This document shows positions 20,707 to 50,915 of a DNA stretch of 64,000 nt, one piece after another (positions within the stretch are counted from its first letter, which is position 1; every line of letters starts with the position of its first letter). The DNA is from Octopus vulgaris (lineage: Eukaryota). Under the pieces are notes generated by a model. That model did no database searches, had not been told where the DNA came from, and saw only the letters and a program-made list of their open reading frames with translations. The stretch covers positions 19,406,001 through 19,470,000 of the forward strand of contig OX597838.1 in NCBI GenBank assembly GCA_951406725.2, read 5' to 3'. The position numbers and the translations under genes are program-made.

Positions 20707-20945
20707 ATAAATGAAAAGATGTATAAACAAACGACATAACATATACCGAATGTAAAAACGAACGGGAGACAAACAGAAGGTCTGTAATTCTTCATCAGCT
20801 ATCGACCAATTGGTAGAAAGCTCTCCCATCACACCAATTGGGAATATTACCAAATTGGTCGATGACTGATGAAGAATTATGTCTCCAGTTCATTTTGACA
20901 TTCAGTATATGTTACGTCATTTATTTGTATATTTTTTGATTTATC
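20707..20945. repeat. Diverged inverted repeat with CTGATGA in both arms
   Basis: TAATTCTTCATCAGCTATCGACCAAT vs ATTGGTCGATGACTGATGAAGAATTA; the outer arms also pair. Confidence 0.7.
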
Positions 20946-21214
20946 AAGTAATGGAATGCAACACACACCGAATTTTTGTGTGTACGTATGTGTGAGTGTG
21001 TGTGTGTGTGTGTGTAAATGTCAGATTCATGGATCCAGGTGTAGGAAGCTAGTAAGTTTCAAGCAGTTTACAGAAGGTATATAAACACAGCTTTCAGGAA
21101 CAATAGTAGTTTGTTGGCATGGAAGGTTGTAAATTTTTCCCATATCGAAGTTCGATAAGCCGGAAAAAGTTATTTCATTGTTCGGGGTTAGCAGCTTGGG
21201 TTGCTATGTATGTA

Positions 21215-21441
21215 TACTCTTTTACACTTTTACTTGTTTCAGTCATTTGACTGTGGCCATGCTGGAGCACCGCCTTTAGTCAAGCAAATCTACCCGAGGA
21301 CTTATTCTTTTGTAAGCCTAGTACTTATTCTATCGGTCTCTTTTGCCGAGCCGCTAAGTTACGGGGACGTAAACACACCAGCATCGGTTGTCAAGTGATG
21401 TTGGGGGGGACAAACACAGATGCACAAACACATACACACAC

Positions 21442-21494
<53 letters not shown>

Positions 21495-21630
21495 TACGAC
21501 GGGCTTCTTTCAGTTTCTGTCTACCAAATCCACTCACAAGGGCTTTGGTCGGCCTGAGGCTATAGTAGAAGACACTTGCCCAAGGTGCTTCGCAGTGGGA
21601 CTGAACCCGGAACCATGTGGTTGGTAAGCA
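21215..21630 (-). mobile_element. SINE family A
   Basis: Match to consensus. Confidence 0.85.
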
Positions 21631-21682
21631 ATTGCGAATAATTGGATTTTACCTGTTCCATTCACTCAATTTGGATCTATGT

Positions 21683-21764
<82 letters not shown>

Positions 21765-21789
21765 CAAACTCTAAAATATTAGAGCAATA

Positions 21790-21987
21790 GTATATTTAGA
21801 AAGTTGTTTGTTATGGTCAGTCTGAGAGTGACCACTGGTTTTGCACCTATATAGCACTTAGTTGCATAAGTGACTCATCCGGTCATTTGAGTCTAATGAG
21901 TAGCCTAATCAGCTAAGTGCTTTACAGGTGCGGAACCAGTGGTCACTCTCAGACTGACCATAACAATCTATCTTCTATAAATATATA
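21790..21987. repeat. Inverted repeat carrying back-to-back decayed hammerheads
   Basis: TTGTTATGGTCAGTCTGAGAGTGACCACTGGTT pairs with AACCAGTGGTCACTCTCAGACTGACCATAACAA. Confidence 0.85.
21889..21948 (+). ncRNA. Decayed type I hammerhead motif
   Basis: GAGT-CTAATGA-...GGTGC-GGA-ACCAGTGGT-C-ACTC; two core substitutions; mirror copy in the left arm. Confidence 0.55.
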
Positions 21988-21989
21988 AT

Positions 21990-22465
21990 TGGCCTAGTGG
22001 TTAGGGTATTTGGCTCACAATCGTAAGGTTGTGAGTTCAATTCCTGGTGGCCGGTATGTTGTGTCCTTGAGCAAGACACTTTATTTTCACGTTGCTCCAG
22101 TCCACTCAGCTGGCAAAAATGAGTAGTACCTGTATTTCAAAGGGCCGGCTTTGTGACATTCTGTGTCACGCTGAATCTCCCTGAGAACTACATTAAGGGT
22201 ACACGTGTCTGGCTCATAGGGCTGGTTTCCTTGGTGTCTAGGTTCCCCACCTGGATGGGACACCGGTCCATTGCAGGTGAGCTGCAAGATGCAGGAGGAA
22301 AGAGTGAGAGAAGGTTGTGGCGAAAGAGTCAGCAGAGGTTCGCCATTACCTTCTGCTGAAGCTTAGGTGTTTCACTCATAAACACACACATCACCCGGTC
22401 TGAGATTCGAACCCGCGATCCCTCGACCGCGAGTCCACTACTCTAACCACTAGGCCATGTACCTC

Positions 22466-22467
<2 letters not shown>
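21990..22467. mobile_element. SINE family E (+, 21990-22210) abutting family D (-, 22210-22467)
   Basis: tRNA-like heads; GTGTCCTTGAGCAAGACACT core shared with 47930 and 57680. Confidence 0.7.
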
Positions 22468-22534
<67 letters not shown>

Positions 22535-22587
22535 GAGTGTGTGTAAATATATATATGTATATATATATATGAGTGTGTGTAGGTATA

Positions 22588-22620
<33 letters not shown>

Positions 22621-23424
22621 GAGTGTGTGTAAATATATATATGTGTATGAGTGTGTGTAAATATATATATGTATATATATATATGAGTGTGTGTAAATAT
22701 ATATTTTATCAACAGCTATATAAACTCACAGGCCTTCAATCTATGACTAGTTTGATAAGTGCCAACACACGAAACTCTCAGACTTTGAGTCACTCTCTTA
22801 CTTCTGCTAAATATTAATAAAAATATCTATCTATCTATCTTTCTATCTATCTATCTATCTATCTATATATCACATACACACATATATAATAAGAAGTAAA
22901 AGGGATTAATAAATCCAGGTAGATATCTACAAAGCATTCAGTCTTAAATGAATTTGGTTAACTCCATGAAAGAATTAGATACCAATAAATGCATGTAGAT
23001 TAAACATCCAAGGTGATTCTTCATGTATGAGAAGAAGTAAATCCAAATATCGCTAAGAAGAATTTCAAGAAATTCAGAGGATAAGACAAGAACAAAAACG
23101 AAGAAAATCACATCTTTAATTGGTGATTACACCATAAATTAGTGGTGATTGTTTCTACCGTGCAAATACGTTTTGAGCAAAATATATAAAATACCAATAA
23201 AATTGATACATCAGGAAGTAATATGCTAACTCAACGTTATCAAGGCAATCCAAAATTGGTTAAATTCAAAAGGATCTATATATATAGGGAGATGTACTTG
23301 CATAGCAAGTGATTTGATCTGAGATCGTGTGCTGGAACGAAAACAATTGCAGCGTGGAAGGTGTTTGTAAGCCATTTAAGAAACACACAAAAGCCGTTCG
23401 ATTCACTTCAACATTTAAGTTTAA

Positions 23425-23474
23425 TTTGTCAAAATATTTTCGTCGCTAAAATCCGCGACCTGTTCACTGACAAA
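23425..23474 (-). ncRNA. Type I minimal hammerhead motif with G3-C8 covariant core
   Basis: TTTGTCA-GTGAACA-G-GTCGC-ggatttta-GCGAC-GAA-AATATT-T-TGACAAA. Confidence 0.75.
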
Positions 23475-23774
23475 AATCCATGCTGCATCTATATATATAT
23501 ATATATATACTTTTCTACTCTAGGCACAAAGCCCGAAAATTTTTGGGAAGTGGGGCCAGTTGATTAGATTGACCCCAGTATACAACTGGTACTTAATTTA
23601 TCGACAATGAAAGGATAAAAGGCAATTTGAACACAGAACGTAACGACAGATGAAATATCACTAAGGTTGCATGTATGTAAATGAAGAGGATAGATTTGAC
23701 TGTTAAAGACGGATCGTTATTAACAAGTGAAATTCTCTTCCTTTGAAATACTGATCACATCCACGTATATTATT

Positions 23775-23806
<32 letters not shown>

Positions 23807-24041
23807 AGTTGACCATGGCGGAATTTTCATTCTGAACGTAAAGACAGGTGAAATACTGCTAAGCATTTGTGGTATAGGTGCAACACCAGAAATTTTGAGT
23901 GAAGGGAACTAGTCGATTACGTGAACCCCCAGTACAAGACTGGTACCTCTTTTATTGACCCCGAAAGGATGACAGACAAAGTCAGCCTCAGTGGAATTTG
24001 AACTCAGAATGTACAGAGACAGAGATGGAAGAAATACCATA

Positions 24042-24093
<52 letters not shown>

Positions 24094-24196
24094 CATATAT
24101 ATATATAGTTGAAATTTACAGGAAAACAAAAGACGAAGACAGGTGTATAAACAACAAGCAGGTGTATTAGTTTTATGCTCAGGAAGGTAAGAAAGT

Positions 24197-24232
24197 CTTT
24201 TATGTTTTGAGCCTATGCTCTTCAATAGAAAG
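24197..24232 (-). ncRNA. Highly decayed minimal hammerhead-like motif
   Basis: CTTT-CTATTGA-A-GAGC-ATAG-GCTC-AAA-ACAT-A-AAAG; helices I and II intact, core degraded. Confidence 0.35.
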
Positions 24233-24296
24233 GAACGCAAGGAAATAAACAGAGAGGGAATAAAAAAACTGTTGGAGTTAGCGGTCAATCATGGCA

Positions 24297-24633
24297 AGGT
24301 CGTTGTCGACTTATGACCTCAGTTGGTTCTGACTGACTGGTCGTAAACTGATTTGGTCATAAGTTGGCCTATAGGCTTACATAGATTTGTTTTATATTTT
24401 TACATTCTTACTCTCTCTTTTACTCTTTTACTTGTTTCAGTCATTTGACTGTGTCCATGCTGGAGCACCACCTTTAATCGAGCAACTCGACCCCAGGACT
24501 TATTCTTTTGTAAGCCCAGTACTTATTCTACAGGTCTCTTTTGCCGAACCGCTAAGTAACGGGGACATAAACACACCAGCATCGGTTGTCAAGCAATGCT
24601 AGAGGGACAAACACAGACACACAAACACACACA

Positions 24634-24687
<54 letters not shown>

Positions 24688-25207
24688 CATACATATATAC
24701 AACGGGCTTCTTTCAGTTTCCGTCTACGAAATCCACTCACAAGGCTTTGGTCGGCCCGAGGCTATAGTTGAAGACACTTGCCCAAGGTGCCACGCAGTGG
24801 GACTGAACCCGGAACCATGTGGTTGGTAAACAAGCTACTTACCACACAGCCACTCCTACGCCTAAGGTACTTTCTCAGGTAAAAGTCACACACAGCATTC
24901 TGTATTGTACTATTATATTGGCGATACTCAAAAATTCCAGAGTCTCAAGCAGTCGTCTTATAAACAAATACGAGGTTGCCTCGATGTCTCTGCGACAGGA
25001 TGGTCATCTAACACAGTGGAGACTGATACCCAAACCTAGGGGAAGCATTTGTTAGCTGACATCACTCATAGACAGGTTGATTTCTAAGAAATTAAACCCA
25101 TTAGATTTCAACTGGACTATTTATTATTGCTTCCGGGAGGTGGAGTGGCAATCATCATAAAGTTGAACGGTTGTAAGTTGGACAGGTCATAAATTGACGA
25201 CAACCTG
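24297..25207. mobile_element. pogo/Tigger-like MITE interrupted by SINE A (24408-24863, -)
   Basis: AGGTCGTTGTCGACTTATGACC vs GGTCATAAATTGACGACAACCTG|TA; subterminal GTCRTAA repeats. Confidence 0.55.
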
Positions 25208-25408
25208 TATATATATATATATAAGTAGTTGAATGAATTATCTTATTATGGATAATTCGGTTAACCGATACCTGGGTAGCAAATTCACGCCAGAAAAACA
25301 CGGTTGAAGCTACATGCCAAGGGCAGAGATCACGTGCTTTCGTGTAGAAATTTGTGTGTTTTTTTAATAAAGGAATTTTGTTAATTTGGCGTTCAACTCC
25401 TTTCTTTC

Positions 25409-25447
<39 letters not shown>

Positions 25448-25469
25448 ACACACACACACACACATATAT

Positions 25470-25668
25470 ATTTCTTTACTACCCACAAGGGGCTAAACAT
25501 AGAGGGGGACAAACAAGGACAGACAAAGGTATTAAGTCGATTACATCGACCCCAGTGCGTAACTGGTACTTATTTAATCGACCCCGAAAGGATGAAAGGC
25601 AAAGTCGACCTTGGAGGAATTTGAACTCAGAACTTGGCGGCAGATGAAATACAGCTAAGCATTTCGCA
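25470..25668 (-). mobile_element. SINE family B
   Basis: Match to consensus. Confidence 0.8.
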
Positions 25669-25719
25669 TATATACATACATATATATATATACATACATA
25701 CACACACACACGCACACGC

Positions 25720-25762
<43 letters not shown>

Positions 25763-25844
25763 TGAATCATATGTGGTATTCTAAGTTTTATAAGACATGT
25801 CTAAATTTCAGTAAGTTAACTGTCAGGACTAAACAAACTTGGTA

Positions 25845-26200
25845 AGAAGCGTGCTACCCAACCGCATGGTTCTGGGTTCAGTCCCACTGCATGGTGGAAC
25901 CTTAGGAAAGCGTCTTTTACTATAGCTTCAGGCTGACCAAGGCCTTGTGACCGGATTGGGTAGATGGAAAGTATATGTGTGTGTGTGTGTGTGTGTGTTT
26001 GTCTCCTACCACTACTTGACAACCAGTGTTGGTGTGTTTATGTCCCTGTCACTTAGCGGTTCAACAAAGAAACTGGTAGAATAAGTACCAGGCATTACAA
26101 AACAATAACTCTTGGGGTTGACTCATTTGACTGAAAATTCTTCAAGGTGGTGCTTCAGCATGGCCACAGTCTAGCGACTGAATCTAGTAAAAGATAAAAG
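25845..26200 (+). mobile_element. Older SINE family A variant
   Basis: Diverged match. Confidence 0.7.
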
Positions 26201-27111
26201 ATATATGTATGTATGTATATATGAAACTTTGATGAAACTTGCAGGAAAAGTTGGTGATGACACAAGTTGATGATGATAAGGAAGAGGAGGAGAGCCGGAG
26301 GGGGAAGAAGAAGAAGAAGAAGAAGAAGAAGAAGAAGAAGAGTAGGAGGGGGTTTGTTTACATCTCTGTAACATTAGCAGTTCAGCAAAAAGGAGCAACA
26401 AAATAAGTCCTGGCTTGATACAAGTAAAGTCCTAGGATAGATTTCTTTGATTAAAAAAACAAAAAGAGAAAATATCCTTCAAGGTGGTGCCCCAGCATGA
26501 CCGCAGACAAATTACTGAAACGGGTAAGATGAAAGACACCTTTAAGTACATTGAAAGGTTGTCAAAATCATTGAAAAGTGAACTAGTTAATTCTGTTTGA
26601 AACAGGAAATGGACATCTCCATACTGATGTTATTTCTCATTATGTCAAATACCGTCAAAAGCATGCAATTTCAAAAATGCATGTATCTTCTCTTTGCTGT
26701 CCTCTCTCTACACTCAGTCATTTGTTTGTAGCTTAACAATTGACTGACCTACAAGTCATAGTTGACTGCTTCCATGTGATGACCAATTGACCATTAGTGG
26801 AATGCACAGAAGCACACTAAAACTAATGATAATTGGAGTAATTTAGACCCTCTCACAAGAACCATCTGTCATCACGTCAATCTTGCCAGACTGCAATAAC
26901 ACAATAATTTTGCAGATTTAGAAAAATGATTTATATGATAAACACAACGCAAAGATCTATTTCCTGTTTGACTTTTAAAAATCCCAAAAGAACACATTGT
27001 TACGTTGTCTTTTATATTTTTTTTTATCATTAACTAATTAAGCTTCATTGATTTACTAACATCATCATCTGTTTTTTTCAAGTTTACTTTCAATTCATAA
27101 AAAAAAGTACA

Positions 27112-27161
<50 letters not shown>

Positions 27162-27899
27162 GCATACGCACACACACAAGCATACGCACACACACACATG
27201 GGCATGTTTGTTTCGTCAAATATCTTTGAACTTTTGAAATATTAGTCCAAATGACTTAGACGCGTTTCACAGAACTTTTGGAAACCAGCTTTTCAAAAGA
27301 GAACTTTCAAGGGAACCAATTAATTATAGATGATGGCAGGAAAATACTGAAATTACCTAATTTGTGAAGTTCTAACAAGAAATAAGGCAATTTCAGATTT
27401 ATTTATATGAAAGGAAAAACAGAAAAGTGAGTAGCTGGAAATGCCAAGTCAGATAAATTATTTTGCTGGCCATGCTTGTTATTTAGTTACGCAAAAACTG
27501 ATTTCGAGTGATAAAGGTTGCAATGTTTTAAATAATCAACATATTGGTTACAAATTTTGGCACAAGGCCAAGAAGTTTGAGGGAAGGAGGGTAATTTAAT
27601 TACATCGACCCCAGTGTTTAACTGGTACTTATTTTATTGATCCCCAAAAGGATGTAAGGCAAAGTTAACCTCGGTAGCATTTGAACTCAGAATATAAAGC
27701 TGGACAAAATGCTGCTAAGCATTTGTGTCGGCATTTCATAGAACTTTTGGAAACCAGCTTTTCAAAAGAGGACTTTGAAGGGAACCAATTAATTATAGAT
27801 GATGGCAGGAAAATACTGAAATTACCTAATTTGTGATTCTTCATGTATGACAAGTAAAAGCAAATATCAAAGGATGTTTTGCATTCTTGTCCCATTTTG

Positions 27900-27959
<60 letters not shown>

Positions 27960-28367
27960 GAGTGTCTGTGTGGTAAGTAGCTTGCTTACCAACCATATGG
28001 TTCCAGGTTCAGTCCGCTGTGTGGCACCTTGGACACGTGTCTTCTACTATAGCCTCGGGCTGACCAGAGCCTTGTGAGTGGATTTGGTAGACAGAAGGCA
28101 ATTTCAGATTTATTTATATGAACCAAATAACAGACTATAAAGATGGGCAAAGTGCTGTTATGCATTTGTGCTGGTGTGCTAATGATTTTGACAGCTCACC
28201 CCCTTAGATAATCTACATACTGATTTCAAATTTTGGCACAAGGCCAGCAATTTTGGGGTAAGACGATTATATCAACCCCAGTGTTCAACTGGTACTTATT
28301 TTATTGACACCGAAAAGATGAAAGGCAAAGTTGAAATTTGACCTTGGGGAGATTTGAACTCAGAATG

Positions 28368-28531
28368 GCGCAGGAGTGGCTGTGTGGTAAGTAGCTTGCT
28401 AACCAACAACATGGTTCCAGGTTCAGTCCCACTGCGTGGCATCTTGGGCAAGTGTCTTCTGCTATAGCCCCGGGCCGACCAATGCCTTGTGAGTGAATTT
28501 GGTAGACGGAAACTGAAAGAAGCCTGTCATA

Positions 28532-28568
<37 letters not shown>

Positions 28569-28770
28569 TTGTGTGTCTGTGTTTGTCCCCCTAGCATTGC
28601 TTGACAACCGATGCTGGTGTGTTTACGTCCCCGTAACTTAGCGGTTCGGCAAAAGAGGCCGATAGAATAAGTACTGGGCTTACAAAGAATAAGTCCCGGG
28701 GTCGATTTGCTCGACTAAAGGTGGTGTTCCAGCATGGCCGCAGTCAAATGACTGAAACAAGTACAAAAGA
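28368..28770 (+). mobile_element. SINE family A nested in a family B copy (28225-28846, -)
   Basis: Family B sequence resumes at about 28790. Confidence 0.75.
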
Positions 28771-28869
28771 GAGAGAGAGAGAGAGAGATGAAACGCTGCT
28801 AAGCATTTTGCCTGGCATGCTAACGATTCTGCCACGTCGCTGCCTTAAATAAGCTACATATTGTCATGT

Positions 28870-29790: not shown

Positions 29791-29871
29791 CAACAAAATA
29801 AAGCATCCAGTATATTCTGTAAAGTGGCTGATGTTAAAAAGGGCATCCAGCTGTAGAAACCATGCCAAAGC

Positions 29872-29932
<61 letters not shown>

Positions 29933-29965
29933 TATATAATATAGGACAATCAGTAAGTTGTCACA

Positions 29966-30025
29966 ATAATACTCAGAGTTTCAAATACCAGAGCTGAGAG
30001 CTTCTAGGCATTTTTCATCAGTTAA
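29966..30025 (-). ncRNA. Type I hammerhead motif
   Basis: TAA-CTGATGA-A-AAATGCC...GGTATTT-GAA-ACTCTGAGT-A-TTA; short helix I; next to (TA)n. Confidence 0.65.
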
Positions 30026-30057
30026 ATATTGAGGTCTCATTCATTTTTTTGTTGTCA

Positions 30058-30091
<34 letters not shown>

Positions 30092-30121
30092 ATATAATTA
30101 ATGGAAGTTACTTTAGCCTTC

Positions 30122-30578: not shown

Positions 30579-30973
30579 TAAGAAACCTGGACGTTATCAA
30601 AGAAGCTTGAGAAGCGGTTGGATGGAACCTACACTCGCCTCCTTATGAGAGCTCAAAATGTCACGTGGAGGCGCCATCCAACCAAAATGCAAATATATGG
30701 GAAACTACCACCTGTGTCATCTCTTGTGAAAGGTAGGAGAGTCCAGTTTGCTGGACATTGTTGTAGAGCTGAAAAAGAGGTAATTTCTACTCTTCTCCTC
30801 TGGAAGCCATCTACTCACAATACCAGAGGGCGCACACTCTCCTACCCTGATGTAATCTCCAGGGATACAGGCATCCAGCAACAGGACCTCCGTAATGCCA
30901 TGATGGACCGTGAAGTCTGGCGTAGCATGGTAAATTCCATTGTCTCGACCACGGTCAAACAATGATGATGATG
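30579..30973 (+). mobile_element. 5'-truncated RTE-type LINE 3' end with 12-bp TSD, inside an old SINE A (30380-31200)
   Basis: ETWTL...RRVQFAGHCCR...MMDREVWR; (TGA)n tail; ATATGTGTTTGT at 30567-30578 and 30974-30985. Confidence 0.85.
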
Positions 30974-31376: not shown

Positions 31377-31441
<65 letters not shown>

Positions 31442-32817: not shown

Positions 32818-33100
32818 CATAAAATTTTATAATTATGAGTATAATTATAATTAGGGTTCAGCAAAAATTTGCTTCACCACATCCTGAAATTTAGAAACAG
32901 CAGTTAAAACTAATTATTTAAGTACTACTATAAGAAAATCTCTCGGGAGAAATTTTTGCTGAGCCCTAATTGTAATTATACTCATAAATATAAAATTTTA
33001 TGTATAAGTTTACCGTTAATGGTTCTTTTAACATACCGAACTACTTGGTAAAATTATTAATTATTAATTAAATTAATTAATTAATTTTACCCTTTATTAT
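32815..33100. repeat. AT-rich foldback element between (TA)n tracts
   Basis: 32815-32870 pairs with 32950-33006; related copy at 47705-47895. Confidence 0.7.
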
Positions 33101-33139: not shown

Positions 33140-33682
33140 CAAATTAATAAATAAAACATATGCATATATACATACATATATGTACGTGCCTACATCTACA
33201 TCTATATATACATGCATATATGGGTACAGGACACCAAAAAAATGTCGAACACAATGAGAAATGAAAACATAAACACAAAACCAAGGAACTGGACATTTTT
33301 CTTAAACAACAAATATATACATATATATACAAAATGGGACAAGAACGCAAAACATCCGGAGAGTTAGGTGATACAAAAAAGGGATAACAAAACCCTCGAG
33401 ATAGATGATACAAAGAAAATGAGGACGGGTCATTCAGAGCTTTCTTTCCTCAGTCGAGTTCCAGATCATCTTTGCAATTTCGGCTGGTTATACTCAAGAT
33501 TGCTCCAATCTGGTCAGCACCAAGGAAAAACTAAGCTAAGAGCATTAGATTCCTTATATATATATATATGTATGTATGTATGTAGCTACACGTATTTCTA
33601 CGTCTATGTAACTGCTATTATTTATCTATATATGTACACTCACGTACACATTTATACACACATACACTGACACAAAGACATA

Positions 33683-35390: not shown

Positions 35391-36175
35391 AACAATGGTC
35401 TCAACTATTCATGCAAGGCTCACAAATTTTATGAAAGTTGTGTAGTGCAAAACTTCATCTTTTCCTCCCATAAAGGGAGCTAGCTCTATTATGAGGTATG
35501 GACACTGTCTTATCTCCTCAGAGTTAAATGGTGATATGAAAGTAAAAAAAAAAGCCCCCCCCCCCGATATTTCTCTGCTATTTATTTCCTTTGTTAAGTC
35601 ATTAGTGCTTTGGATAGAATATTTTGTGCCATCTGTTCTGGTGCCCTGTGCTCTGTGTTCACATCGCGCAGAAGTCAAGTTTGTCTTATATTCTTTTGGG
35701 GGAGAAATAAATTAAACACTGCCACCACGAGATCCAGTCTGCTCTACAGGAAACAAAGGGTTTAAGTAAATAAGAAGTAAATAAAGTATCGGTCTAGGGC
35801 AGGAGATTGGAGTAATTATTGAAGTGTCAGCCCAGATACCTTGTGGTATTATTCTTGACCTGTGCACTCTGAGTTCAAATCCTGCTGCGATCAACTCATT
35901 CTATTTATCCTTTCAGAGTAGATAAGTTAAGTTACAATCCAATGTTTGGGAATCAGCAAAAAATTGTCAGAGAATTGAACAAGATACTTTGTGGTTTGGT
36001 CCAGCTTTCCACATTGTGAGTTCAAATCCTACTGGGACTAAATTTGCCTTTTATCCTTTCAGGGCTGATAAACAAAAATAGCAGTCTAGTCCAGTGCAAT
36101 GGAATGTTAGAATATTGGATTGGACGCCTTGCAGTGTTTGTTCCTGATATTCCTAATTCAAATATTTTTTGGAGA

Positions 36176-36529
36176 TTATTTACATTATTTACATTTGACG
36201 GATATTTGTCCTCATCTTGTTTGTTGCCAACACAACGTTTTGGCTGATATACCTCCAGCCTTCATCAAGTCAAGTGTTTTGGGGATAATTTGAACCTGGG
36301 TTCTCATTCCTAAAGTATTTTTTGATGTTAATAATAATAATAATAATGATAATAATAATAATAATAATAGTAACAACAACAACATTGAAAATACCTTAGG
36401 AATGAGAACCCAGGTTCGAAATTTCCCCAAGACACCTGATGAAGGCTGGAGGGTATATCAGCTGAAAAGTTGTGTTAAAAACAAACAAGATGAGGACAAA
36501 TATCCGTCAAATGTAAATAATGTAAATAA
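36176..36529. repeat. ~150-bp-arm inverted repeat around (AAT)n, with back-to-back hammerheads
   Basis: 36176-36330 is the near reverse complement of 36380-36529. Confidence 0.9.
36431..36476 (+). ncRNA. Minimal type I hammerhead motif (right arm of inverted repeat)
   Basis: GACAC-CTGATGA-A-GGCTG...CAGCT-GAA-AAGT-T-GTGTT; the mirror arm (about 36229-36277, -) keeps the ACGT helix III. Confidence 0.65.
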
Positions 36530-36641
36530 ATCCTCATCTCTTAAATATAGGACTGTACTTTTTGGAGGTTCAGGTTCCTGATGATTTCCACAGCTAATCA
36601 CCCGACCTCAGAGCCACAAGTGGAGAATGAAAGCTGTAGAG

Positions 36642-39156: not shown

Positions 39157-39369
39157 CACCCCTTGAAATATAAATGAATGGACTCACATATATGTGTATA
39201 AGTTCATTCCTCTGTATATCTGTATGTATGTATAAAGTCCAGTATATGGCAATGAATGTAAACTATATAAATAATTTCCTAAAGGGTTTAAATGAAACAG
39301 AACAGAATAATGATTAGAACGAGTAGATTTTACTTTAAAAAATTATACATCTTTACACATCTTTACATA

Positions 39370-39766
39370 GGCGCAGGAGTGGCTGTGTGGTAAGTAGCTT
39401 GTCTACCAACCACATGGTTCCGGGTTCAGTCCCACTGCGTGGCACCTTGGGCAAGTGTCTTCTACTATAGCCTCGGGCTGACCAAAGCCTTGTGAGTGGA
39501 TTTGGTAGACGGAAACTGAAAGAAGCCCGTCGTATATATGTATATATATATATGCGTGTGTGTGTTTGTGTGTCTGTGTTTGTCCCCTAGCATTGCTTGA
39601 CAACTGATGCTGGTGTGTTTATGTCCCGTTACTTAGCGGTCCGGCAAAAGAGACCGATAGAATAAGTACTGGGCTTACAAAAGAATAAGTCCTGGGGTCG
39701 AGTTGCTCGACTAAAGGCGGTGCTCCAGCATGGCCGCAGTCAAATGACTGAAACAAGTAAAATAGT
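39370..39766 (+). mobile_element. SINE family A
   Basis: Full-length match. Confidence 0.85.
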
Positions 39767-40456: not shown

Positions 40457-40474
40457 TATATATATATGTATATA

Positions 40475-40540
<66 letters not shown>

Positions 40541-41141: not shown

Positions 41142-41528
41142 TCATCATCATCATCATTGTTTTTTGTCCACTTTCGATGCTAGCATGGATTGGACGGTTT
41201 GACTGAGGTCTGGCGAACCAGGCTCCAAGCTGATCTGGCAGAGTTTCTACAGCAGGATGCCCTTCCTAACGCCAACCACTCCGAGAGTGTAGTGGGTGCT
41301 TTTATGTGCCACCGGGACGAGGGCCAGTCAGGCACTACTGGCAACGGCCATGCTCAAATGGTGTTTTTTATGTGCCACCTGCACAGTAGCCATTCCTGTG
41401 TCACTGGCAACGACCTCGCTCAAATGTTGTTTTTCACATGCTACCAGCACAAGTACCAGTAAGTTGACATTGGTAACAATCACCCTTGAATTGTTTTTTT
41501 CATGTGCCGCCGGCACAGGAGCCAGTCA
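41142..41528 (-). mobile_element. SINE family C with internal tandem subrepeats
   Basis: Matches 1105-1545. Confidence 0.75.
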
Positions 41529-42062
41529 ATCAGATATATATAAAGCAAGTAAGTAACAAGGATGTCCAGGTATCATTGCATTACAGCCGTTTCAAGCAGC
41601 TACATTTAATTGATCAATGCAAGCATTACATCATTTTGAAATAACCCACTTTCCTCAGACACATAAGACCATACAGGTTTTCAACATACAGGATACTCCA
41701 TTGTAATTTTTTTAGCAAATTTTCTCATCAGAATTAGAGAATAAAAGAATTACATGTTTATTGCTATTATTGTAGCAGAATGAACTTAGGGAGAAAATAC
41801 CAAAAGTCTGGACATTCTTATTACTTATTTGCTTTTTATTCACCTTACTTCAAGCTGTGCGGATAATACTGGACTGTGTTGGTGCCTCAACTTAAGTACC
41901 TAATTCAACTGAATCTTAATTATTTCTTATATATATAATGGATAATAAAATGAATGGTTTACACCTGGTAGCTTACTGGTAAAGCATGGTCATTTTCATA
42001 GTGATTGTTATGGATATGGTAAATGAAAGGTGGAAGACGGAATATGCAAGAATTTATTATTA

Positions 42063-42168
42063 ATCACGACAATTGTCTCGACACATCTAGCATCGATTCC
42101 TCATGGGTGGGACATTTGATAACTGGTTCAGGAGCATCTGTTGGTGTAGATGTATCTCATCGGGTGAT
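42063..42168 (-). ncRNA. Type I hammerhead motif with two core substitutions
   Basis: ATCAC-CCGATGA-GATACATCTA...TAGATGTGTC-GAG-ACAATTGT-C-GTGAT. Confidence 0.6.
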
Positions 42169-42520
42169 GAACAAATGCAACTCGTTAAAATAACAGTTCC
42201 GTAATGTAACTTCCCGTTTTGTAGAAAGAAAAGGAGTCAGACAGAGGAAATATCTTCATTTATATGGAAGATCAAAAATAAAATCACAGATGGCAGAAAG
42301 AGAAACGAACATGCAATCCAACGAGGAAAGTATGGATGTATAAACCACCCTCAGGCAAGCTGCATGGTGCGAGTACATTTGCTCATACAAGCATCCACAA
42401 AAATGCGAGCATACACACACGTGAGGTTTGGCGCTCTCATGATCACAAAGTGAGTTGTCTATCTACTTGGCGTTTGTAAGAGCGGGGGAGGTTAAAGGTA
42501 AACTTAAGTCATCCCTACCT

Positions 42521-42926
42521 ATTTCTTTACTACCCACAAGGGGCTAAACACAGAGGGGACAAACAAGGACAGACAAACGGATTAAGTTGATTATATCGAC
42601 CCCAGTGCGTAACTGGTACTTATTTAATCGACCCTGAAAGGATGAAAGGCAAAGTCGACCTCGGCGGAATTTGAACTCAGAACGTAGCGGCATATGAAAT
42701 ACCTATTTCTTTACTACCCACAAGGGGCTAAACACAGAGGGGACAAACAAGGACAGACAAACGGATTAAGTTGATTATATCAACCCCAGTGCATAACTAG
42801 TACTTATTTAATCGACCCCAAAAGGATGAAAGGCAAAGTCGACCGTGGCGGAATTTGAACTCAGAATGTAGCGGCAGACGAAATACCGCTAGGCATTTCG
42901 CCCGGTGTGCTAACGTTTCTGCCAGC
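42521..42926 (-). mobile_element. Dimeric SINE family B with 18-bp TSD
   Basis: CTTAAGTCATCC(C/A)TACCT at 42503-42520 and 42927-42944; two ~183-bp units. Confidence 0.85.
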
Positions 42927-43474
42927 CTTAAGTCATCCATACCTTAAAGTAAATTAAATTATGTTATCGGTTGCTCAAAATTAATTCCCACAGCATTGTG
43001 CGAAAGTACATTTATATGCATGGAGGCATCTCGAGAGATGTTCAGAAATTTTCTTAATGATCTTCTCTTTAGTCCACGAGTAGATTTGAACTAAGAAAAT
43101 AAAATGTGACGAAAGACAAGACCATAAGTTTGTGGTGAGGGTTTACTAGGTTGATCCCATCACATTGACTGGTACATGATCATATTGGGCCCCTTCTGTC
43201 TGTCAACTACATCTCTTACAACACCCTTCCACAAGCAATTTTCGTCTAAGATAATTTGATAATTTGAGGTGTATGTAAAGTATTCCTGGCGATGATTTTG
43301 GAAACTTTTTGCTTTTTCCTTCACACACATTTTTTGAGACTTATCATCTTGGTCTAGAGTCTACTTAATAAATTATAATTAATTGTAGGTATTTTACAGT
43401 TTAATCCTCGTGAGTGGATTTGGTAGACAGAAACTGAAAGAGGTCTGTAGTATATACATATACATATGCATATA

Positions 43475-43685
43475 TAAGGTGGCCCAAAAGTAGGTTTGCA
43501 GTTATCCAACTATCTCTTTTGCATTCATAAATTAACAGTTTAGATCTTAATTATAAAAATTATGAAACCTTTATTCTATGCAAATTTAGTTAATTGTAAG
43601 GTAGAAATTTAAATGTAATAAAATGTTTTAAATGAAATTTTAAGTGCCTATGTGACAATTGTAAACCTGCTTTTGGGCCACCTTG
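43475..43685. mobile_element. Tc1/mariner MITE
   Basis: TIRs AAGGTGGCCCAAAAGTAGGTTTGCA / TGTAAACCTGCTTTTGGGCCACCTTG, flanked by TA. Confidence 0.8.
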
Positions 43686-44174
43686 TATGTATGTGGAAGC
43701 GTAAAAAAATCACCACTCATATTTACACACACATACATATATACACACATATAGATTTTGGATAACAAAGAACATCCCTTCCCAATTCAACTCCAAATTT
43801 TTTTGCAACTAACTCATATATATATAAAAGGTATTAATTTTCTGTAACTGTATCATTCATGATGAATCTCTCAAAAGAAATGAAAGCACTGAATAAATAA
43901 TCTTTATCCAAAATTCTACCTCCTTTTCTGTGTCTCTGTTTGTCACCCACCACTGCTTGACAACCAGTGTTGGTGTGTTTACGTTCCTGTAACTTAGCAG
44001 TTTGGCAAAAGGAACTGACAGAATAAGCACCAGGTTATTAAAAGAAAAAAACATAAGTACTGGGATCGATTCATTCGACTAAAAATTCTTCAAAATAGTG
44101 CTCCAGCATGACTGAAACAAGTAAAAGATAAAAGATATTCGTAGTCATCCCCCCCAGGGACGCAGATCTTTATA

Positions 44175-44570
44175 GATGCAGGAGTGGCTGTGTGGTAAGT
44201 AGCTTGCTTACCAACCACATGGTTCCGGGTTCAGTCCCACTGCATGGCATCTTGGGTAAGTGTCTTCTACTATAGCCTCGGGCCGACCAAAGCCTTGTGA
44301 GTGGATTTGGTAGACGGAAACTGAAAGAAGCCCGTCGTATATATGCATATATATGTGTGTGTGTATGTGTGTATATGTCTGTGTTTGTCCCCCTAGAATT
44401 GCTTGACAACCGATGCTGGTGTGTTTATGTCTCCATCACTTAGCGGTTCGGCAAAAGAGTCCGATAGGATAAGTACTAGACTTACAAGGAATAAATCCCG
44501 GGGTCGATTTGCTCGACTAAAGGCGGTGCTCCAGCATGGACACAGTCAAATGACTGAAATAAGTAAAAGA
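44175..44570 (+). mobile_element. SINE family A
   Basis: Full-length match. Confidence 0.85.
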
Positions 44571-44870
44571 GAAGAACTATACCACAATGGGAACCATATA
44601 CCACAATGGGAACCATATTAATATCAGATCTTAAAATGGCAGGCAAGCAGCAGTATTTTAACAGTCAACATGATGATCAACACAAGTCATTGGTATCTCT
44701 TCAAATTTCTACAAATATTCAAGTGGTTTGCATAACAGGTTAAAGAAAAAGAAGCCCTCAATGTTATTTGAAGTACTAATGATTTTGAAGGAGCAGATCA
44801 CCTTACTGGCAGCTATTTTTGTATTGTAACAATTATATGGTTTTCTTAAAAAAAAAACCCAAAAAATATA

Positions 44871-45280
44871 GGCGTAGGAGTGGCTGCGTGGTAAGTAGCT
44901 TGCTTACGAACCACATGGTTCCAGGTACAGTCCCACTGCGTGGCACCTTGGGCAAGTGTCTTCTACTATAGCCTCGGGCCGACCAAAGCCTTGTGAGTGG
45001 ATTTGGTAGACGGAAACTGAAAGAAGCCCGTCGTATATATGTATGTATATGTATGTATGTGTGTGTGTATATGTTTGTGTGTCTATGTTTGTCCCCTCCA
45101 ACATCGCTTGACCACCGATGCTGGTGTGTTTACGTCCCCGTAACTTAACAGTTTGGCAAAAAGAGATTGATAGAATAAGTACTAGGCTTACAAAGAATAA
45201 GTCCTGGGGGTTGATTTGCTCGACTAAAGGCGGTGCTCCAGCATGGCCACAGTCAAATTACTGAAAAGAGTAAAAGAGTA
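44871..45280 (+). mobile_element. SINE family A
   Basis: Full-length match. Confidence 0.85.
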
Positions 45281-45319
45281 ACAGCAGATAGGACATCACT
45301 ATCACTGTGATACTGGTAC

Positions 45320-46036
45320 TAAGCCAAGTGTTTTTTCATGCTGAGGAACAGATAATAGTCAGCTGTGGCCAAATAAGGAGAATAGGGAGGTTGATCAACC
45401 AGCTGAAAACCATAATCATGCACAACAACCATTGAAACCAAGGATTTGTATGCTGGAGCATTGTCCTAATGAAACAAGACCCCTTTCTGCAGTTTTCGTG
45501 GACATTTGACCTAGATAGCCTTTTGTAACTGCCTTGGAAAGTTGGCATAGCACTCTCTGTTGATGGTGTGGACCTTTTGAAGACAGTCAACAAACAGTTC
45601 CAAAAAACTGAGGCCATCATCTCCCCTGCAGATGGCCTTCTTTGGAGCAGGTGAGGAGGAGTGTTTCCACTGCATGGATTGTCTCTGTCACTGGCTCAAA
45701 GTGATGAACCAAATACTCATTCTTATTTCTTTACTGCCCACAAGGAGCTAAACACAGAGGGGACAAACGAGGACAGACAAACGGATTAAGTCGATTACAT
45801 CGACCCCAGTGCGTAACTGGTACCTAATTTATCGACCCCGAAAGGATGAAAGGCAAAGTCGACCTCAGCGGAATTTGAACCCAGAACGTAATGACAGACG
45901 AAATACGGCTATGCATTTCGCCCGGCGTGCTAACGTTTCTGCCAGCTCGCCGCCTTTGAACCAAATACTCATTCTGGGTTAGGAAATGTTCAAAGAAATC
46001 AGCTGGATCTGCCTGAAACAATGTCAGATTTTCGTA
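45320..46036 (-). pseudogene. Decayed mariner (DD34D) transposase catalytic domain, split by a SINE
   Basis: FLTQNEYLVHHFEP, QSMQWKH, MMASVFW, FH*DNAPA and PPYSPYLATADYYLF across frames. Confidence 0.85.
45724..45956 (-). mobile_element. SINE family B with perfect 19-bp TSD
   Basis: TGAACCAAATACTCATTCT at 45705-45723 and 45957-45975. Confidence 0.9.
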
Positions 46037-46299
46037 TAGCGAGGTCGTTGCCAGTATCGCTGGACTGGCTCCTGTGCAGGTGGCACATAAAAAGCACCAT
46101 TTGAGCGTGGCCGCTGTATTGGCCCTTGCCTTTCCCTTGGATAACATCGGTGGCGTGTAGAGGGGAGGCTGGTATGCATGGGGGACTGCCGCTCTTCCAT
46201 AAACAACCTTGCCCAGATTTGTGCCTCGGAGGGTAACTTTCTAGGTGCAGTCGCATGGTCATTCATGACTGAAGGGGGGTCACAACTACTATTATTATA

Positions 46300-46733
46300 G
46301 CCGAGGTTGACTTTACTTTTCATCCTTTAGGGGTTGATAAATTAAGTACCAATTGAGTTTTGGGGTTGATGTAATTGACTTATCCCCCTCCCCCAAATTT
46401 CAGGCCTTGTGCCTGTTATAGAAAAGATTATTATTATCCTCCTCCTCATCATCATCGTCATCATCGTCGTCGTCTTCATCGTCATCGTTATTATTATTAT
46501 AAGGCAGCGAGCTGGCAGAAACGTTAGCACACCGGGCGAAATGCGTAGCCGTATTTCGTCTGCCACAACATTCTGAGTTCAAATTCCGCCGAGGTCGACT
46601 TTGCCTTTCATCCTTTCGGGGTCGATAAATTAAGTACCAGTTACACACTGGGGTCGATGTAATCGACTTAATCCGTTTGTCTGTCTTTGTTTGTCCTCTC
46701 TGTGTTTAGCCCCTTGTGGGTAGTAAAGAAATA

Positions 46734-46781
<48 letters not shown>

Positions 46782-47055
46782 GTCATCATCATCATTATCA
46801 TTATTATAATTAAGGTGGCAAGCTGGCAGAATTGTTAATGCACCAGGCAAAATGCTGAGTGTCATTTCATCCGGTTCTCTGTGTTCTGAGTTCAAATGCT
46901 GCCAAGGTTGACTTTCCCATTCATCATTTTGGTGTTGATAAGATGAGTAACAGTCAAATACAGTGGGGGGGGAGGATGATGTAATTGACTAGCCCCCCCC
47001 CCCATCCACCATTTCCTATTAATATCCAGGCCTTGGGCCTACAGGAGAAAGGATT
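46300..47055 (+). mobile_element. Three SINE family B copies separated by trinucleotide tracts
   Basis: Match to consensus; best copy 46501-46735. Confidence 0.75.
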
Positions 47056-47660
47056 ATTTTATAATTATAGTCTACAAGATAAAACTTTTGACGAGACATT
47101 AATTCACAGCACCTGAGCTAAAAGAATTGGCATGCGATCTAATTCATTTGCACAGTCTCCTTTCTTTTGAAATGAAGTTTAAAAACAGCGGTGCCCCAGC
47201 ATGGCCTTAGCTCTCTAGCTGAAACTATTAAAGAAAATTTAAAAAAAAAGAAGAAAAGACTGTCGGAGGCTTCCAAATATATGGCATATCGCATGTCTCC
47301 TAAATTACATTTGTTCCATTCACACCTAGATTTCTAGTCTGAAAATATCAGCGCAGCCAGTGATAAACAAAAAGGAGAGATTTCCCCTGAATATTAAATC
47401 TAAGCAAACATGCTATCAAGAATTCAAGAATTCTCGAATGGAAACATGGAGGCAGACTATTGTTAGAAGATGTAAATTGCATTTAAAAGAAATTGTCATA
47501 TTTATCACATTTTTCATTATAGATAGCATGTGCACTACATGTATGTGTGTGTACATGTGCATATATATATATATATGTATATATGTATATATATATATAT
47601 GTATGTATACACATATGATAAATGCATGAAAATAAATCTTATTTTTATTACACACACACA

Positions 47661-47711
<51 letters not shown>

Positions 47712-47929
47712 TTCTATAATTATAACATAATTATAATTAGGGGGCAGCTAATTGCTGTATAATTATAATTATGTTTATGATTATAGAATATTTGTTTAAT
47801 TTCACCTAAAAAGATTATCTTAACGTATTGATCTACTTGGTAAAATTATTAATTACTAATTAATTAATTGAATAATTAATTAATATTACCCTTTTATTTT
47901 ATATATATATATCTACATGTATATGTATA

Positions 47930-48200
47930 TTGTGGCGGTGCATGGCTTCGTAAGAGTGTTGGCCTTGCAATCATGAGGTTGTGAGGTCAATTCCCAGGCC
48001 GGGTTATGTGTTGTGTTCTTGAGCAAGACACTTTATTTCATGTTGCTCCAGTTCACTCAGCTGTAGCAATGAGTTGCGACGCCACTGGTGCCAAGCTATA
48101 TCAGCCTTTGCTTTTCCCTTGGACAACATCGGTGGCACGGAGAGCGGAGGCTGGTATGATGGGCGACTGCTGGTCATCCATAAACAACCTTACCCAGACT
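47930..48200 (+). mobile_element. SINE family E
   Basis: Reverse-complement match to 57680-58016. Confidence 0.7.
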
Positions 48201-48564
48201 TGCGCTAAAAGAACCCTTCCTATAGATACACACACACACACACACACACATGTACATGCGTATATACACATAGTGTAATGATTCCTATCTTTTCAGCATA
48301 TATTTCAGCTGAACTTTCTCAGAAATGAGACTGTTTCTGTATGACAGAGGTCAACTCTCTGATATGTTGGCCTTTATCTCCATGAACATTATTGGTCCTG
48401 GAGATCCAAAATAACAGCCTCAGGTCTGGTGGGAGTTATGTAGTCCTGAACACCATTATAGCCACCTTCTGACAATTCCTTCAGGAGGAAATTGTTCAGC
48501 TTAGCACAGAACACAATATCAACTACAAACTTTCACATCTTGGTGATCTGTTTGACATTCATCT

Positions 48565-48891
48565 TTAGTCGAGCAAATCAACCCCAGGACTTATTCTTTG
48601 TAAGCCCAGTACTTATTCTATCGGTCTCTTTTGCCGAACCGCTAAGTTATGAGGATGTAAACACACCAGCATTGGTTGTCAAGCAATGTTGGGGGACAAA
48701 CACACACACACACACACACATACATATACGATGGGCTTTTTCCAGTTTCTCTCTACCAAATCCACTCACAAGGCTTTGGTCAGCCCGAGGCTATAGTAGA
48801 AGACATTTGCCCAAGGTGCCATGCAGTGGGACTGAACCCATGACTATGTGGTTGGTAAGCAAGCTACTTACCACGCAGCCAATCCTGCGCC
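48565..48891 (-). mobile_element. SINE family A (3'-truncated)
   Basis: Match to consensus. Confidence 0.8.
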
Positions 48892-49056
48892 TATATATAA
48901 TATTTGTTCTATCCACAACACCCAATAAATCAGAAGAACCAAAATGAATTTAAACATTACAAAGCCTTACTGTTGGTGAAATAAGGAAGTAAACACACTC
49001 TTTGAAAGCTTTTGATGTGCAGGAGAAATGAAATAAAAAAATATCTGTACCCACCC

Positions 49057-49137
49057 AAAAAATTGAAATCTGATAGGGAAAAAAAAATTGAAATCTGATA
49101 GGGAAAAAAATATTGAAATCTGATGGGGTAAAAAAAA
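49057..49137. repeat. Three tandem ~24-bp units AAAATTGAAATCTGATAGGGAAAA
   Basis: Direct inspection. Confidence 0.8.
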
Positions 49138-49305
49138 CCAATACAAGATTTAGAATCACCATCAATTTCAGTTTTATCTCTCTGATGTGAACAAAATATT
49201 TCATTTGTTGATCTGAGTATACCAAAAAGTATAGAATTGATAAAAAACACACACACATAGCAAAAATTATAGCATAAATTCAAGCAGTCATTCAAAGATA
49301 TAGGT

Positions 49306-49351
<46 letters not shown>

Positions 49352-49453
49352 ATAGAAATGGTAAGACAACAAAAGAATGAAAGTGACCTCGATATTATGT
49401 AAATAGAGGGCTTTATCTGTAAATGTAATTTGTAACAATTATTCGGTAGCCAT

Positions 49454-49514
49454 GATAAAACTCCGAGTTTCAGATGTCAGGGCGGAAATCCATGCTGCCA
49501 TCTCTTCAGTTATC
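49454..49514 (-). ncRNA. Type I hammerhead motif (left arm of inverted repeat)
   Basis: GATAA-CTGAAGA-GATG...CATC-T-GAA-ACTCGGAGT-T-TTATC. Confidence 0.7.
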
Positions 49515-49564
49515 TGACCATCGGAAAAAATGCTCTTTTTCCGAGCATTTCTTCTGATGGCTGA

Positions 49565-49623
49565 ATAACTGAAGAGATGGCAGTGTGGATTTCTGCCCTG
49601 ACATCTGAAACTCGGAGTTTTAT
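49565..49623 (+). ncRNA. Type I hammerhead motif (right arm of inverted repeat)
   Basis: ATAA-CTGAAGA-GATG...CATC-T-GAA-ACTCGGAGT-T-TTAT. Confidence 0.7.
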
Positions 49624-49659
49624 CATGGCTACCGAATAATTGTCACATATTACATTTAC

Positions 49660-49704
<45 letters not shown>

Positions 49705-49707
<3 letters not shown>

Positions 49708-50038
49708 GAATTGATGCCCCACCTACCATATTTGCCGAACATTGGCCCCCCCCCCCCCATCCAACTGATTATCATTAATTCCACAGTCTTCACAATCATT
49801 TGGACAGAAAAAATATGAATTCTGTAGACAAGGTCAGAACAGTACTGAAGGAGAATTTTTCGTCACAGACAAGTGAATTTTGGAAGAGGGGCCTTGCAAG
49901 TCTACGAGACAGATGGAAGAGCATTGTAGAAAATGAAGGAGAGTATATTTTAGATTGCAAAAGAACTTTGTTTAGCTTAATTTTGTAAAATAAAGGAAGT
50001 ATAAAAAAAAAACGCAATAATTTTGGGATGACCCAATA
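49705..50038 (+). pseudogene. mariner transposase C-terminus plus right TIR
   Basis: HLPYLPNIGP..TDYH..SLHNHL...FWKRGLASLRDRWKSIVENEGEYI; ends TTTTGGGATGACCCAATA|TA. Confidence 0.8.
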
Positions 50039-50298
50039 TATATATATTGTCCTTGCCTTCGTAATGGGGAGTAGATGAAACAGGGACTGTTGTATATCTC
50101 ATTTCTCTGGGTTTTTTTGTTGTTTGAAAAAAAGTTTGTTTCCATGTTTTTGTTTTTATGTTTTTGTTTTCATGTTTTTGTTTCTCATTGTATTCAACGA
50201 TTTTTTGATGTCCTGTACCCATATATGCATGTATATATACATATATATGTAGGTATGTACATATATGTATGTATATATGCATATATTTATATATTATT

Positions 50299-50337
<39 letters not shown>

Positions 50338-50349
50338 AATTACCGTTAT

Positions 50350-50542
50350 CTCTGGAATCTCTGGAATTCATAAACATTTAATGCATCTCAACGCACATTT
50401 CCACAAATCACCCGAGGTCCACATATACTATAGTCTGCACTGTAATCATCCCAGGAATACGGACTGTGCTCTTAAGGGACATGTGGTTTGTGGGAACACA
50501 AAAAGCAATGCCTTAAATGTTTATAAATTCCTTCCAAAGATT
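50350..50542. repeat. Imperfect inverted repeat
   Basis: GAATTCATAAACATTTAATGCAT vs ATGCCTTAAATGTTTATAAATTC; CCACAAATCAC vs GTGGTTTGTGG. Confidence 0.65.
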
Positions 50543-50834
50543 ATTATTATTATTATTAAAAATTATTATAATAATTATAATTATAATTATACCCTTTGTT
50601 ATTATTGATAATAGTATTTTCTCCCTGATAACAAACTACAGGTTTTTTTCTGTAGTATTTTACTTGAAGACACACGCGGATGGGCGGGGGAAAGTAAAAT
50701 CACCTCATTCATATTTTGAATTCGGTGGTACTAACACTGAATATGATCTGTCTGATACCGTTAGGTGGAGAGATATATTCAATTATTGCAGTACCCTCGA
50801 ATTTAATATTTCAATATTTAATTATTGAGGAATG

Positions 50835-50915
50835 CCATGCTGATGAGGAAAATGGTTGGTAAAGTATAATTCTATATTCTTTATTCCAATCTAATTCCGA
50901 AACGCGCGTTCATGG
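50835..50915 (+). ncRNA. Type I hammerhead ribozyme motif, canonical core
   Basis: CCATG-CTGATGA-GGAA...TTCC-GAA-ACGCGCGT-T-CATGG: helix I 5 bp, long helix II, palindromic helix III, GUU site. Confidence 0.85.

Follow-up and report, generated by a model that had tools for sequence, protein, structure and literature searches.

Minimal type I hammerhead ribozymes of Penelope-like elements (PLEs) are known across animals, including the molluscs Lottia and Crassostrea (Cervera and De la Pena, 2014; PMC4209133), and dimer cleavage through helix III has been described (PMC4209133; PMC6765202). For cephalopods, one octopus PLE hammerhead has been tabulated (Hydra-1_oBim; Craig et al., 2021, supplement of PMC8557442) and a squid genome paper gives 235 Rfam hammerhead matches (PMC6962438). 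The main text of two cephalopod repeat papers contains neither 'hammerhead' nor 'ribozyme' (PMC13282606; PMC8967140), and no mention of cephalopods was found in that of two papers on animal retrozymes (PMC7229834; 10.64898/2026.07.22.740005), the second of which derives retrozymes from PLEs (Li et al., 2026). Here we followed up 64,000 nt of the Octopus vulgaris genome (GCA_951406725.2, contig OX597838.1, 19,406,001 to 19,470,000; the window, whose positions are used below), for which a sequence-only reading had proposed a swarm of sequence-diverse minimal hammerheads without being certain whether such elements had been described. The kind has been (PMC4209133; PMC8557442): the swarm is real and consists of the minimal type I hammerhead of animal PLEs, a picture that is hereby extended to the octopus genome. 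Natural variants (G3-C8, A3-U8 and A6U cores and a permuted motif in four pieces) were not found in the literature searched, whose reach did not include Lunse et al. (2017) on PLE hammerhead variants and dimers. Our best explanation, with a probability of about 0.75, is that each locus is a copy from one of about ten high-copy families that carry the motif near their 3' end, were inserted by PLE machinery and have weakly cutting motifs in their master copies.

Hammerhead motifs in the window and the genome

A strict descriptor for type I, with a C3-G8 core and at least 3 bp in helix I and 1 bp in helix II, detected five loci in the window (49569+, 50840+, 49509-, 41658- and 30021-), compared to a mean of 0.23 and a maximum of 1 in 30 local dinucleotide shuffles. 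From the genome searched (2.80 Gb, 227 contigs), 100 evenly placed 10-kb stretches (1.0 Mb) were sampled with a descriptor accepting any Watson-Crick 3-8 pair. This led to 32 motifs in 21 clusters (21 C-G, 8 U-A and 3 G-C), seven of which belong to one tandem array (L231); five shuffles of the sample gave 0-4 matches with no C-G among them. Decoy cores were rare on the same real sequence, with 1 match for G5C, 4 for G12C and 8 for the ten mismatched 3-8 combinations. The similar hit rate in shuffled sequence that would have spoken against the swarm was thus not seen. With this descriptor the window holds 3 intact motifs per 64 kb and is about average for the genome at 32 per Mb; the proposed density of one locus per 4-5 kb applies to a 30-kb stretch when dead copies are counted, and not to intact motifs. 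Subtracting a background of ~2 from 32 per Mb (bootstrap 18-51) and multiplying by 2.8 Gb leads to ~45,000-140,000 intact-looking motifs genome-wide, a wide range due to the sample size of 1.0 Mb, at which rare families are also missed.

Helix III also supports the motif. With the palindrome requirement dropped, 116 matches were obtained across the retrieved loci. As these over-represent the families searched for, the 19 clusters formed by the matches were counted instead of single matches. The inner pairs of helix III were complementary in 47/51 cases and 15/19 clusters were fully self-complementary, compared to 5/22 and 0 in six shuffles, again with no palindrome required; the palindromic helix III of the sequence-only reading is thereby confirmed. 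A microsatellite follows within 250 nt downstream in 18 of the 32 sampled motifs, against 23% at random. Rfam reported no hammerhead among the best 150 of 262 matches and none at gathering score in seven loci, a null result that is no evidence against the motifs, since its models miss minimal ones.

Chance matches within AT-rich, hairpin-rich repeat DNA would have to account for all of this. With two core mismatches allowed, the window indeed gave 12 matches against 1-11 in six shuffles, so that the excess was gone, and foldbacks generate complementarity by themselves. The far lower counts in shuffles and decoys, the excess of palindromic helices III and the canonical cores restored in family alignments nevertheless leave this explanation next to no probability. 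The loss of the excess at two mismatches means that decayed loci are supported by their family alignments and not by the window copy.

Repeat families and their link to Penelope-like elements

At all seven main loci the order helix I, core, helix II, GAA, helix III, H and helix I' was found where it had been proposed. The core is complete in the window copies of 50835, 49454, 49565, 29966, 23425 (with a G3-C8 swap), 36431 (with a damaged helix III) and 41658, and broken in 21889 (G5A, A13G), 42063 (U4C, A14G) and 24197 (G5A and G12A in addition to the A6U of its family). Each searched locus is a repeat copy, with at least 173 to 3138 candidates per family; the proposed covariation in place of copying is seen between families and subfamilies, and not between single loci. 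These copy numbers are first-look candidates and lower bounds, the 20-30 aligned copies per family are those closest to the window copy, and the genome-wide searches covered the families other than 29966 and 41658.

Three families run upstream into remnants of the GIY-YIG endonuclease. The 49565 family is represented by a head-to-head foldback, whose left arm (49350..49530, minus strand) is the 3' end of a Hydra-like PLE with a hammerhead at 49454-49514 (-), and whose right arm (49548..49687, plus strand) carries a hammerhead at 49565-49624 (+), with a helix II bulge beside the core, and a (TA)n tail. At least 1265 candidates were found, the core was complete in 30/30 top copies, and, of 20 loci picked because they extend far in the 5' direction, two (L388 and L397) reach the endonuclease remnant, with continuous overlap from the open reading frame (ORF) to the motif; a GIY-YIG lead was also obtained in Atlas (11% of one cluster). 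A second Hydra-like 3' end (41940..42332, minus strand) bears the broken hammerhead 42063-42165 (-) with a long stem II; its family (at least 2125 candidates) mostly shows U4C in the top copies, with a canonical core in 3/25, and continues into a remnant in 2/25 copies (L158 and L171). The Neptune-like 3' end at 24108..24294 (minus strand), with its motif at 24197-24232, belongs to a family of at least 3138 candidates, whose helices are intact and whose position 6 is U or C (17/25 read CUGUUGA). Here the remnant is present in 2/25 copies (L180 and L188) and is 39% identical over 70 aa to a longer PLE, L221. From this upstream continuation, the 49454/49565, 42063 and 24197 families are 5'-truncated ends of endonuclease-coding PLEs and not non-autonomous elements as had been suggested, a label that fits a minority of the families.

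Complete elements exist elsewhere in the genome. A GIY-YIG search gave 6,136 candidates, many in 781-aa open frames, and in L207 Pfam RVT_1 and GIY-YIG matches lie in one ORF, while the window families hold endonuclease remnants only. A single U3-A8 motif family is present in 12 of 30 GIY-YIG loci, lying downstream of the ORF in 11 and upstream in inverted orientation in 1. Two PLE families deserve mention in their own right. L207, L212 and others form a young family that is a candidate for activity: many of its open frames share the same length of 781 aa, and a U3-A8 hammerhead follows several hundred nt beyond the stop. L221 (G000:C4:866512-869775) is a 5'-truncated PLE with reverse transcriptase (RT) and GIY-YIG, an A3-U8 hammerhead 270 nt past the stop and a (TA)n tail; its own 3' end is repeated upstream in inverted orientation, and L301 has a similar motif. 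With three window families and these further elements carrying the motif at a PLE end, the minimal hammerheads are almost certainly PLE-associated, and all families were likely inserted by PLE machinery that is encoded intact in the genome.

The remaining families were read from their aligned copies. The 50835 family is a non-coding repeat with a unit of ~590-600 nt and a (TA)n end. Its window copy (50646..51092, plus strand) contains an intact minimal type I hammerhead at 50835..50915 (+) with C3-G8, helix III ACGCGCGT and a predicted cut at 50910/50911; of at least 662 candidates, 21/30 top copies have an intact core and 3/30 run with their 3' end into their own 5' head. Diverged 3' ends akin to this family, partly foldback and with the hammerhead absent, lie at 15652-15980 and 32847-32909. 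The 36431 repeat (36388..36555, plus strand; hammerhead 36431-36476) is joined via (AAT)n to an inverted partner arm (36175..36327, minus strand), and in this copy helix III reads AAGT, C15.2 is lost and a tRNA-like head is absent. The family (at least 1469 candidates, complete core in 26/30 top copies) has that head in 17/30 copies, with box A in 6 and box B in 9 according to simple patterns, and ARAGORN called no tRNA in eight headed loci. As a whole (window 36175-36555; L125, L147-L149), its tRNA-like head, (AAT)n tract and hammerhead tail resemble a short interspersed nuclear element (SINE) mobilized by PLE machinery. In one of 30 copies (L133) a neighbouring inverted RT fragment was considered as a PLE link and rejected, as the end of the family does not come after it. 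At 21796..21977 an old foldback consists of arms 21796-21879 (-) and 21878-21977 (+), with a decayed hammerhead at 21889-21948 (+); this family (at least 173 candidates, complete core in 9/30 top copies) has the helix III ACCA-A-TGGT. The hammerhead at 29967..30024 (minus strand) shares its helix III type, ACTC-T-GAGT, with 49565 and has one relative in 1 Mb. Another type I hammerhead at 41577..41663 (minus strand) had been overlooked, and its relatives have altered yet paired helices I and III.

The 23425 locus is a young 200-nt element between (TA)n tracts (23288..23489, minus strand), with the hammerhead at 23425-23474 and a predicted cut at 23432/23431. Its family (at least 481 candidates) is 97-99% alike and has a G3...C8 core (29/30 copies at position 3), which is complete in 27/30 top copies. 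All 30 copies start at nearly one point, though the search selected for such a start, and one direct neighbour (L066) is separated by a microsatellite. Contig depth at the cut site drops 5- to 22-fold in RNA-like runs, but also 3- to 10-fold in three large runs of unrecorded kind, and is further confounded by loop II subfamily differences; it was not used. Family majorities keep the core bases in 50835, 49565, 36431 and 21889, show a swapped 3-8 pair in 23425, and deviate in 24197 (A6U) and 42063 (mostly U4C), a mixed picture for the predicted conservation. Four further U6 motifs, one G6 and no C6 were found in the random megabase, and C-G, U-A, G-C and A-U are all present as natural 3-8 pairs across octopus PLE-hammerhead families. 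G3-C8, here the natural state of a young family, is mentioned in PMC3884650 and PMC11167929 as a laboratory variant only; PMC5786205 contributed nothing further.

A permuted hammerhead in the 20707 family

Our main interest lies in the variants, above all in a permuted motif behind the weakest-looking locus, 20707. The sequence-only reading had listed it as a weak type I hammerhead. As no GAAA follows its CUGAUGA, this cannot be upheld; a type II reading was rejected as well. The window holds a 5'-truncated copy (20706..20815, minus strand), in which only helix I', the CUGAUGA at 20792-20798 and the strand of the following helix are left, and an inverted partner arm (20842..20945, plus strand). 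Longer copies of the family show the cut-site block, then the GAAA block, then the CUGANGA block. This order was recovered by a permutation scan in 4 of 20 loci of the family and also in L127 and L169, which are unrelated to it, with other permutations at shuffle level in random 600 kb. L127, L169 and L311-L340 represent a second, younger permuted family, of which the window contains two decayed pieces, 33221-33313 and 50047-50221; the latter (plus strand) begins approximately at the predicted cut site, without the CUGANGA block. The 20707 family has at least 410 candidates and the L169 relative at least 3,549.

Six helices are common to both families in different sequences (20707 versus L169 family): helix III is TCAGT/ACTGA versus GCGT/ACGC, helix I TTATC/GATAA versus TTGTCC/GGACAA, helix II GCACC/GGTGC versus GAAGG/CCTTC, and the helix after CUGANGA AATTCT/AGAATT versus CCCCT/AGGGG; the remaining two are a tie stem and a hairpin between the post-CUGANGA helix and helix II. 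Paired cells amount to 79-92% in the older and 87-99% in the younger family. As the helices were read from the same majority sequences, the changes between families are the real evidence and not these pairing counts. The helix II partner (5 bp, covarying) lies upstream of all blocks, and directly after CUGANGA most 20707-family copies offer only 1 bp; in the L169 family an alternative wobble-rich pairing of 4 bp could give a plain type SGC hammerhead. Both families look non-coding, with no ORF link found and head-to-tail junctions in 1/20 and 2/30 copies respectively.

The same layout was read by eye in the supplement passage that directly precedes the Naiad_Ovul header and seems to be where Naiad_Obim ends (PMC8557442), with the helices III ACCAT/ATGGT, I CTGCCC/GGGCAG and II GACACC/GGTGTC. 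Naiads are a PLE clade reported without canonical hammerheads, and Naiad_Ovul is flagged 'HHR_half_core'; the permuted motif would account for such half-core matches. Type SGC (Eckert et al., 2023; PMC10085705) has the same block order, stems I and III, a linker of 2-3 nt between stems I and II and an extra stem tying I and II. The octopus families differ in the upstream position of the helix II 5' strand and in the separate helix after CUGANGA, and they are animal genomic repeats, whereas type SGC is reported from metatranscriptome and prokaryotic sequence. We lean towards a working hammerhead of SGC block order, in which two extra helices would bring in a fourth strand from upstream to close helix II, with the same layout at the 3' end of an octopus Naiad. 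If so, the genome would amount to a mutational scan of the hammerhead core made by nature, with G3-C8, A3-U8 and A6U among its natural cores.

Insertion, cleavage and comparison with known systems

An inverted partner lies just upstream in 81/198 copies, from 0/25 for 24197 to 21/30 for 23425, and both the foldbacks and the microsatellite ends of the sequence-only reading are borne out. Copies often end at (TA)n or further AT-rich repeats; such tails, like the inverted arms, belong to the usual features of PLEs. In each of six families tested the arms of a foldback share more non-majority variants than other copies predict (e.g. 14 versus 3.5), which fits one source per insertion, with one RNA and two being indistinguishable. 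Published work on Poseidon from Anolis has described a PLE protein that acts on AT-rich DNA, where it cuts both strands and extends them from a start site inside the RNA, and a hammerhead that cuts only with protein and is partly active as a C3G/G8C double mutant (Frangieh et al., 2024; PMC11167929). By analogy, the octopus PLE protein would cut both strands of AT-rich DNA. It would then use uncut element RNA as template to extend both ends, starting at an internal site 30-190 nt downstream of the motif, and where it stopped early, short arms joined head to head would be left. The motif of a master copy may cut weakly, either as a dimer via its palindromic helix III (predicted self-duplexes range from -13.3 to -0.2 kcal/mol) or aided by the PLE protein, and could in this way cut tandem transcripts down to single units. 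Most copies in the genome would be decayed passengers. Self-cleavage by the master motifs is predicted and judged probable.

Several observations weigh against parts of this explanation. The two arms of a foldback are hardly more alike than an arm and other copies (e.g. identities of 0.955 versus 0.949), and copies taken without selection show no accumulation of 5' ends where the cut is predicted (4/170 within 5 nt). Forcing the helix II fold of 49565 costs ~11 kcal/mol over the minimum-energy fold, one exact pattern for a 23425 head-to-tail junction had 0 matches genome-wide, and no ORF link was found for 23425, 21889, 36431 or 50835, so that the proposed linkage to Penelope ORFs stands for 24197, 42063 and 49565. 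Finally, 24197 spread to thousands of copies with A6U and a canonical core in 0/25 top copies, and hammerhead mutants of the anole element insert normally in vitro (PMC11167929); from both, cutting may be dispensable. The motif could then be kept mainly as a folded RNA signal for the PLE machinery, through protein binding or helix III pairing, with cutting incidental or lost in several families. The missing DNA footprint of cut sites, the finding that no RNA reads of the anole element end where it would be cut (PMC11167929) and the two priming events that foldbacks require would fit as well. Against such a signal, the 3-8 pair is kept as C-G, U-A, G-C or A-U across families with mismatches rare, which argues for catalytic-core constraint, and G5 and G12 decoys are depleted; we regard it as unlikely, though clearly worth considering. 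The published biochemistry also agrees with uncut motifs in genomic copies, with AT-rich targets, with one-sided tails and with missing 5' ends at cut sites. For the role of PLE hammerheads, natural test cases are the young families with all four Watson-Crick 3-8 pairs, the A6U family, the intact 781-aa PLE proteins and the permuted motif.

A different proposal would be that all loci are non-autonomous, retrozyme-like elements moving as circular RNAs. Head-to-tail units were found as partial tandems in 50835, as junctions in the permuted families, and as a full array of 359-nt units with the motif in every unit at L231, and not in 49565, 42063, 24197 or 23425. As a statement on all families this proposal is refuted by the three window families that continue into PLE endonuclease ORFs and by the missing junction of 23425, and it is improbable overall. 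L231 itself (L231:2200-4780, G000:C1:20002200-20004780) consists of near-identical non-coding units, five in tandem and two inverted, each with an intact minimal hammerhead, and is a typical retrozyme-like insertion with a head-to-head junction. Weakly cutting, PLE-inserted families remain our preferred explanation.

Besides these elements, the window is rich in microsatellites (138 tandem-repeat rows), and SINE-like repeats of 180-260 nt without hammerheads make up the bulk of its dispersed repeats (e.g. 2762-3021, 39367-39587 and 42515-42926). A single open frame of 2,463 codons at 4787-12175 (-), of low complexity and with a weak C2H2 zinc-finger match, is probably a large host exon. A 127-codon frame at 30582-30962 (+) has no Pfam match; we take it to resemble the end of a reverse transcriptase of the long interspersed nuclear element type. 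Two related sequences at 53483 and 55834 (+) show CUGRUGA and a matching helix I without GAAA; they were detected by relaxed descriptors only and have one relative in the random sample.

Animal non-long-terminal-repeat retrozymes are non-coding units of 300-650 nt in head-to-tail order with one type I hammerhead per unit and a proposed PLE origin (PMC7229834; 10.64898/2026.07.22.740005). This likeness fits only 50835, the permuted families and L231, while classic retrozymes have canonical motifs and long arrays. Closer are the Hydra and Neptune PLEs (PMC8557442), which like the octopus families combine a C-terminal GIY-YIG, (TA)n targeting, 5' truncation and an inverted partner. By eye, the remnants into which 42063 and 49565 run look like the endonuclease rows of the Hydra clade, the Hydra and Neptune labels used here being based on motifs, and the Hydra-1_oBim hammerhead has the helix III of the 21889 family, ACCA-A-TGGT. 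The closest described system is the minimal hammerhead of metazoan PLEs (Cervera and De la Pena, 2014; PMC4209133). G3-C8, A3-U8 and A6U cores as well as octopus are absent from this source as far as covered, and the octopus motifs differ in longer palindromes (up to 8-10 nt), in stem II inserts to ~80 nt and in an extra base after A9 in only 3/19 clusters. Both systems share the type I order, a short helix I, the palindromic helix III, the U3-A8 variant and G10.1-C11.1 (13/19 clusters here), and in both, many sequence-diverse families per genome occur mostly solo or as close inverted pairs from truncated PLEs.

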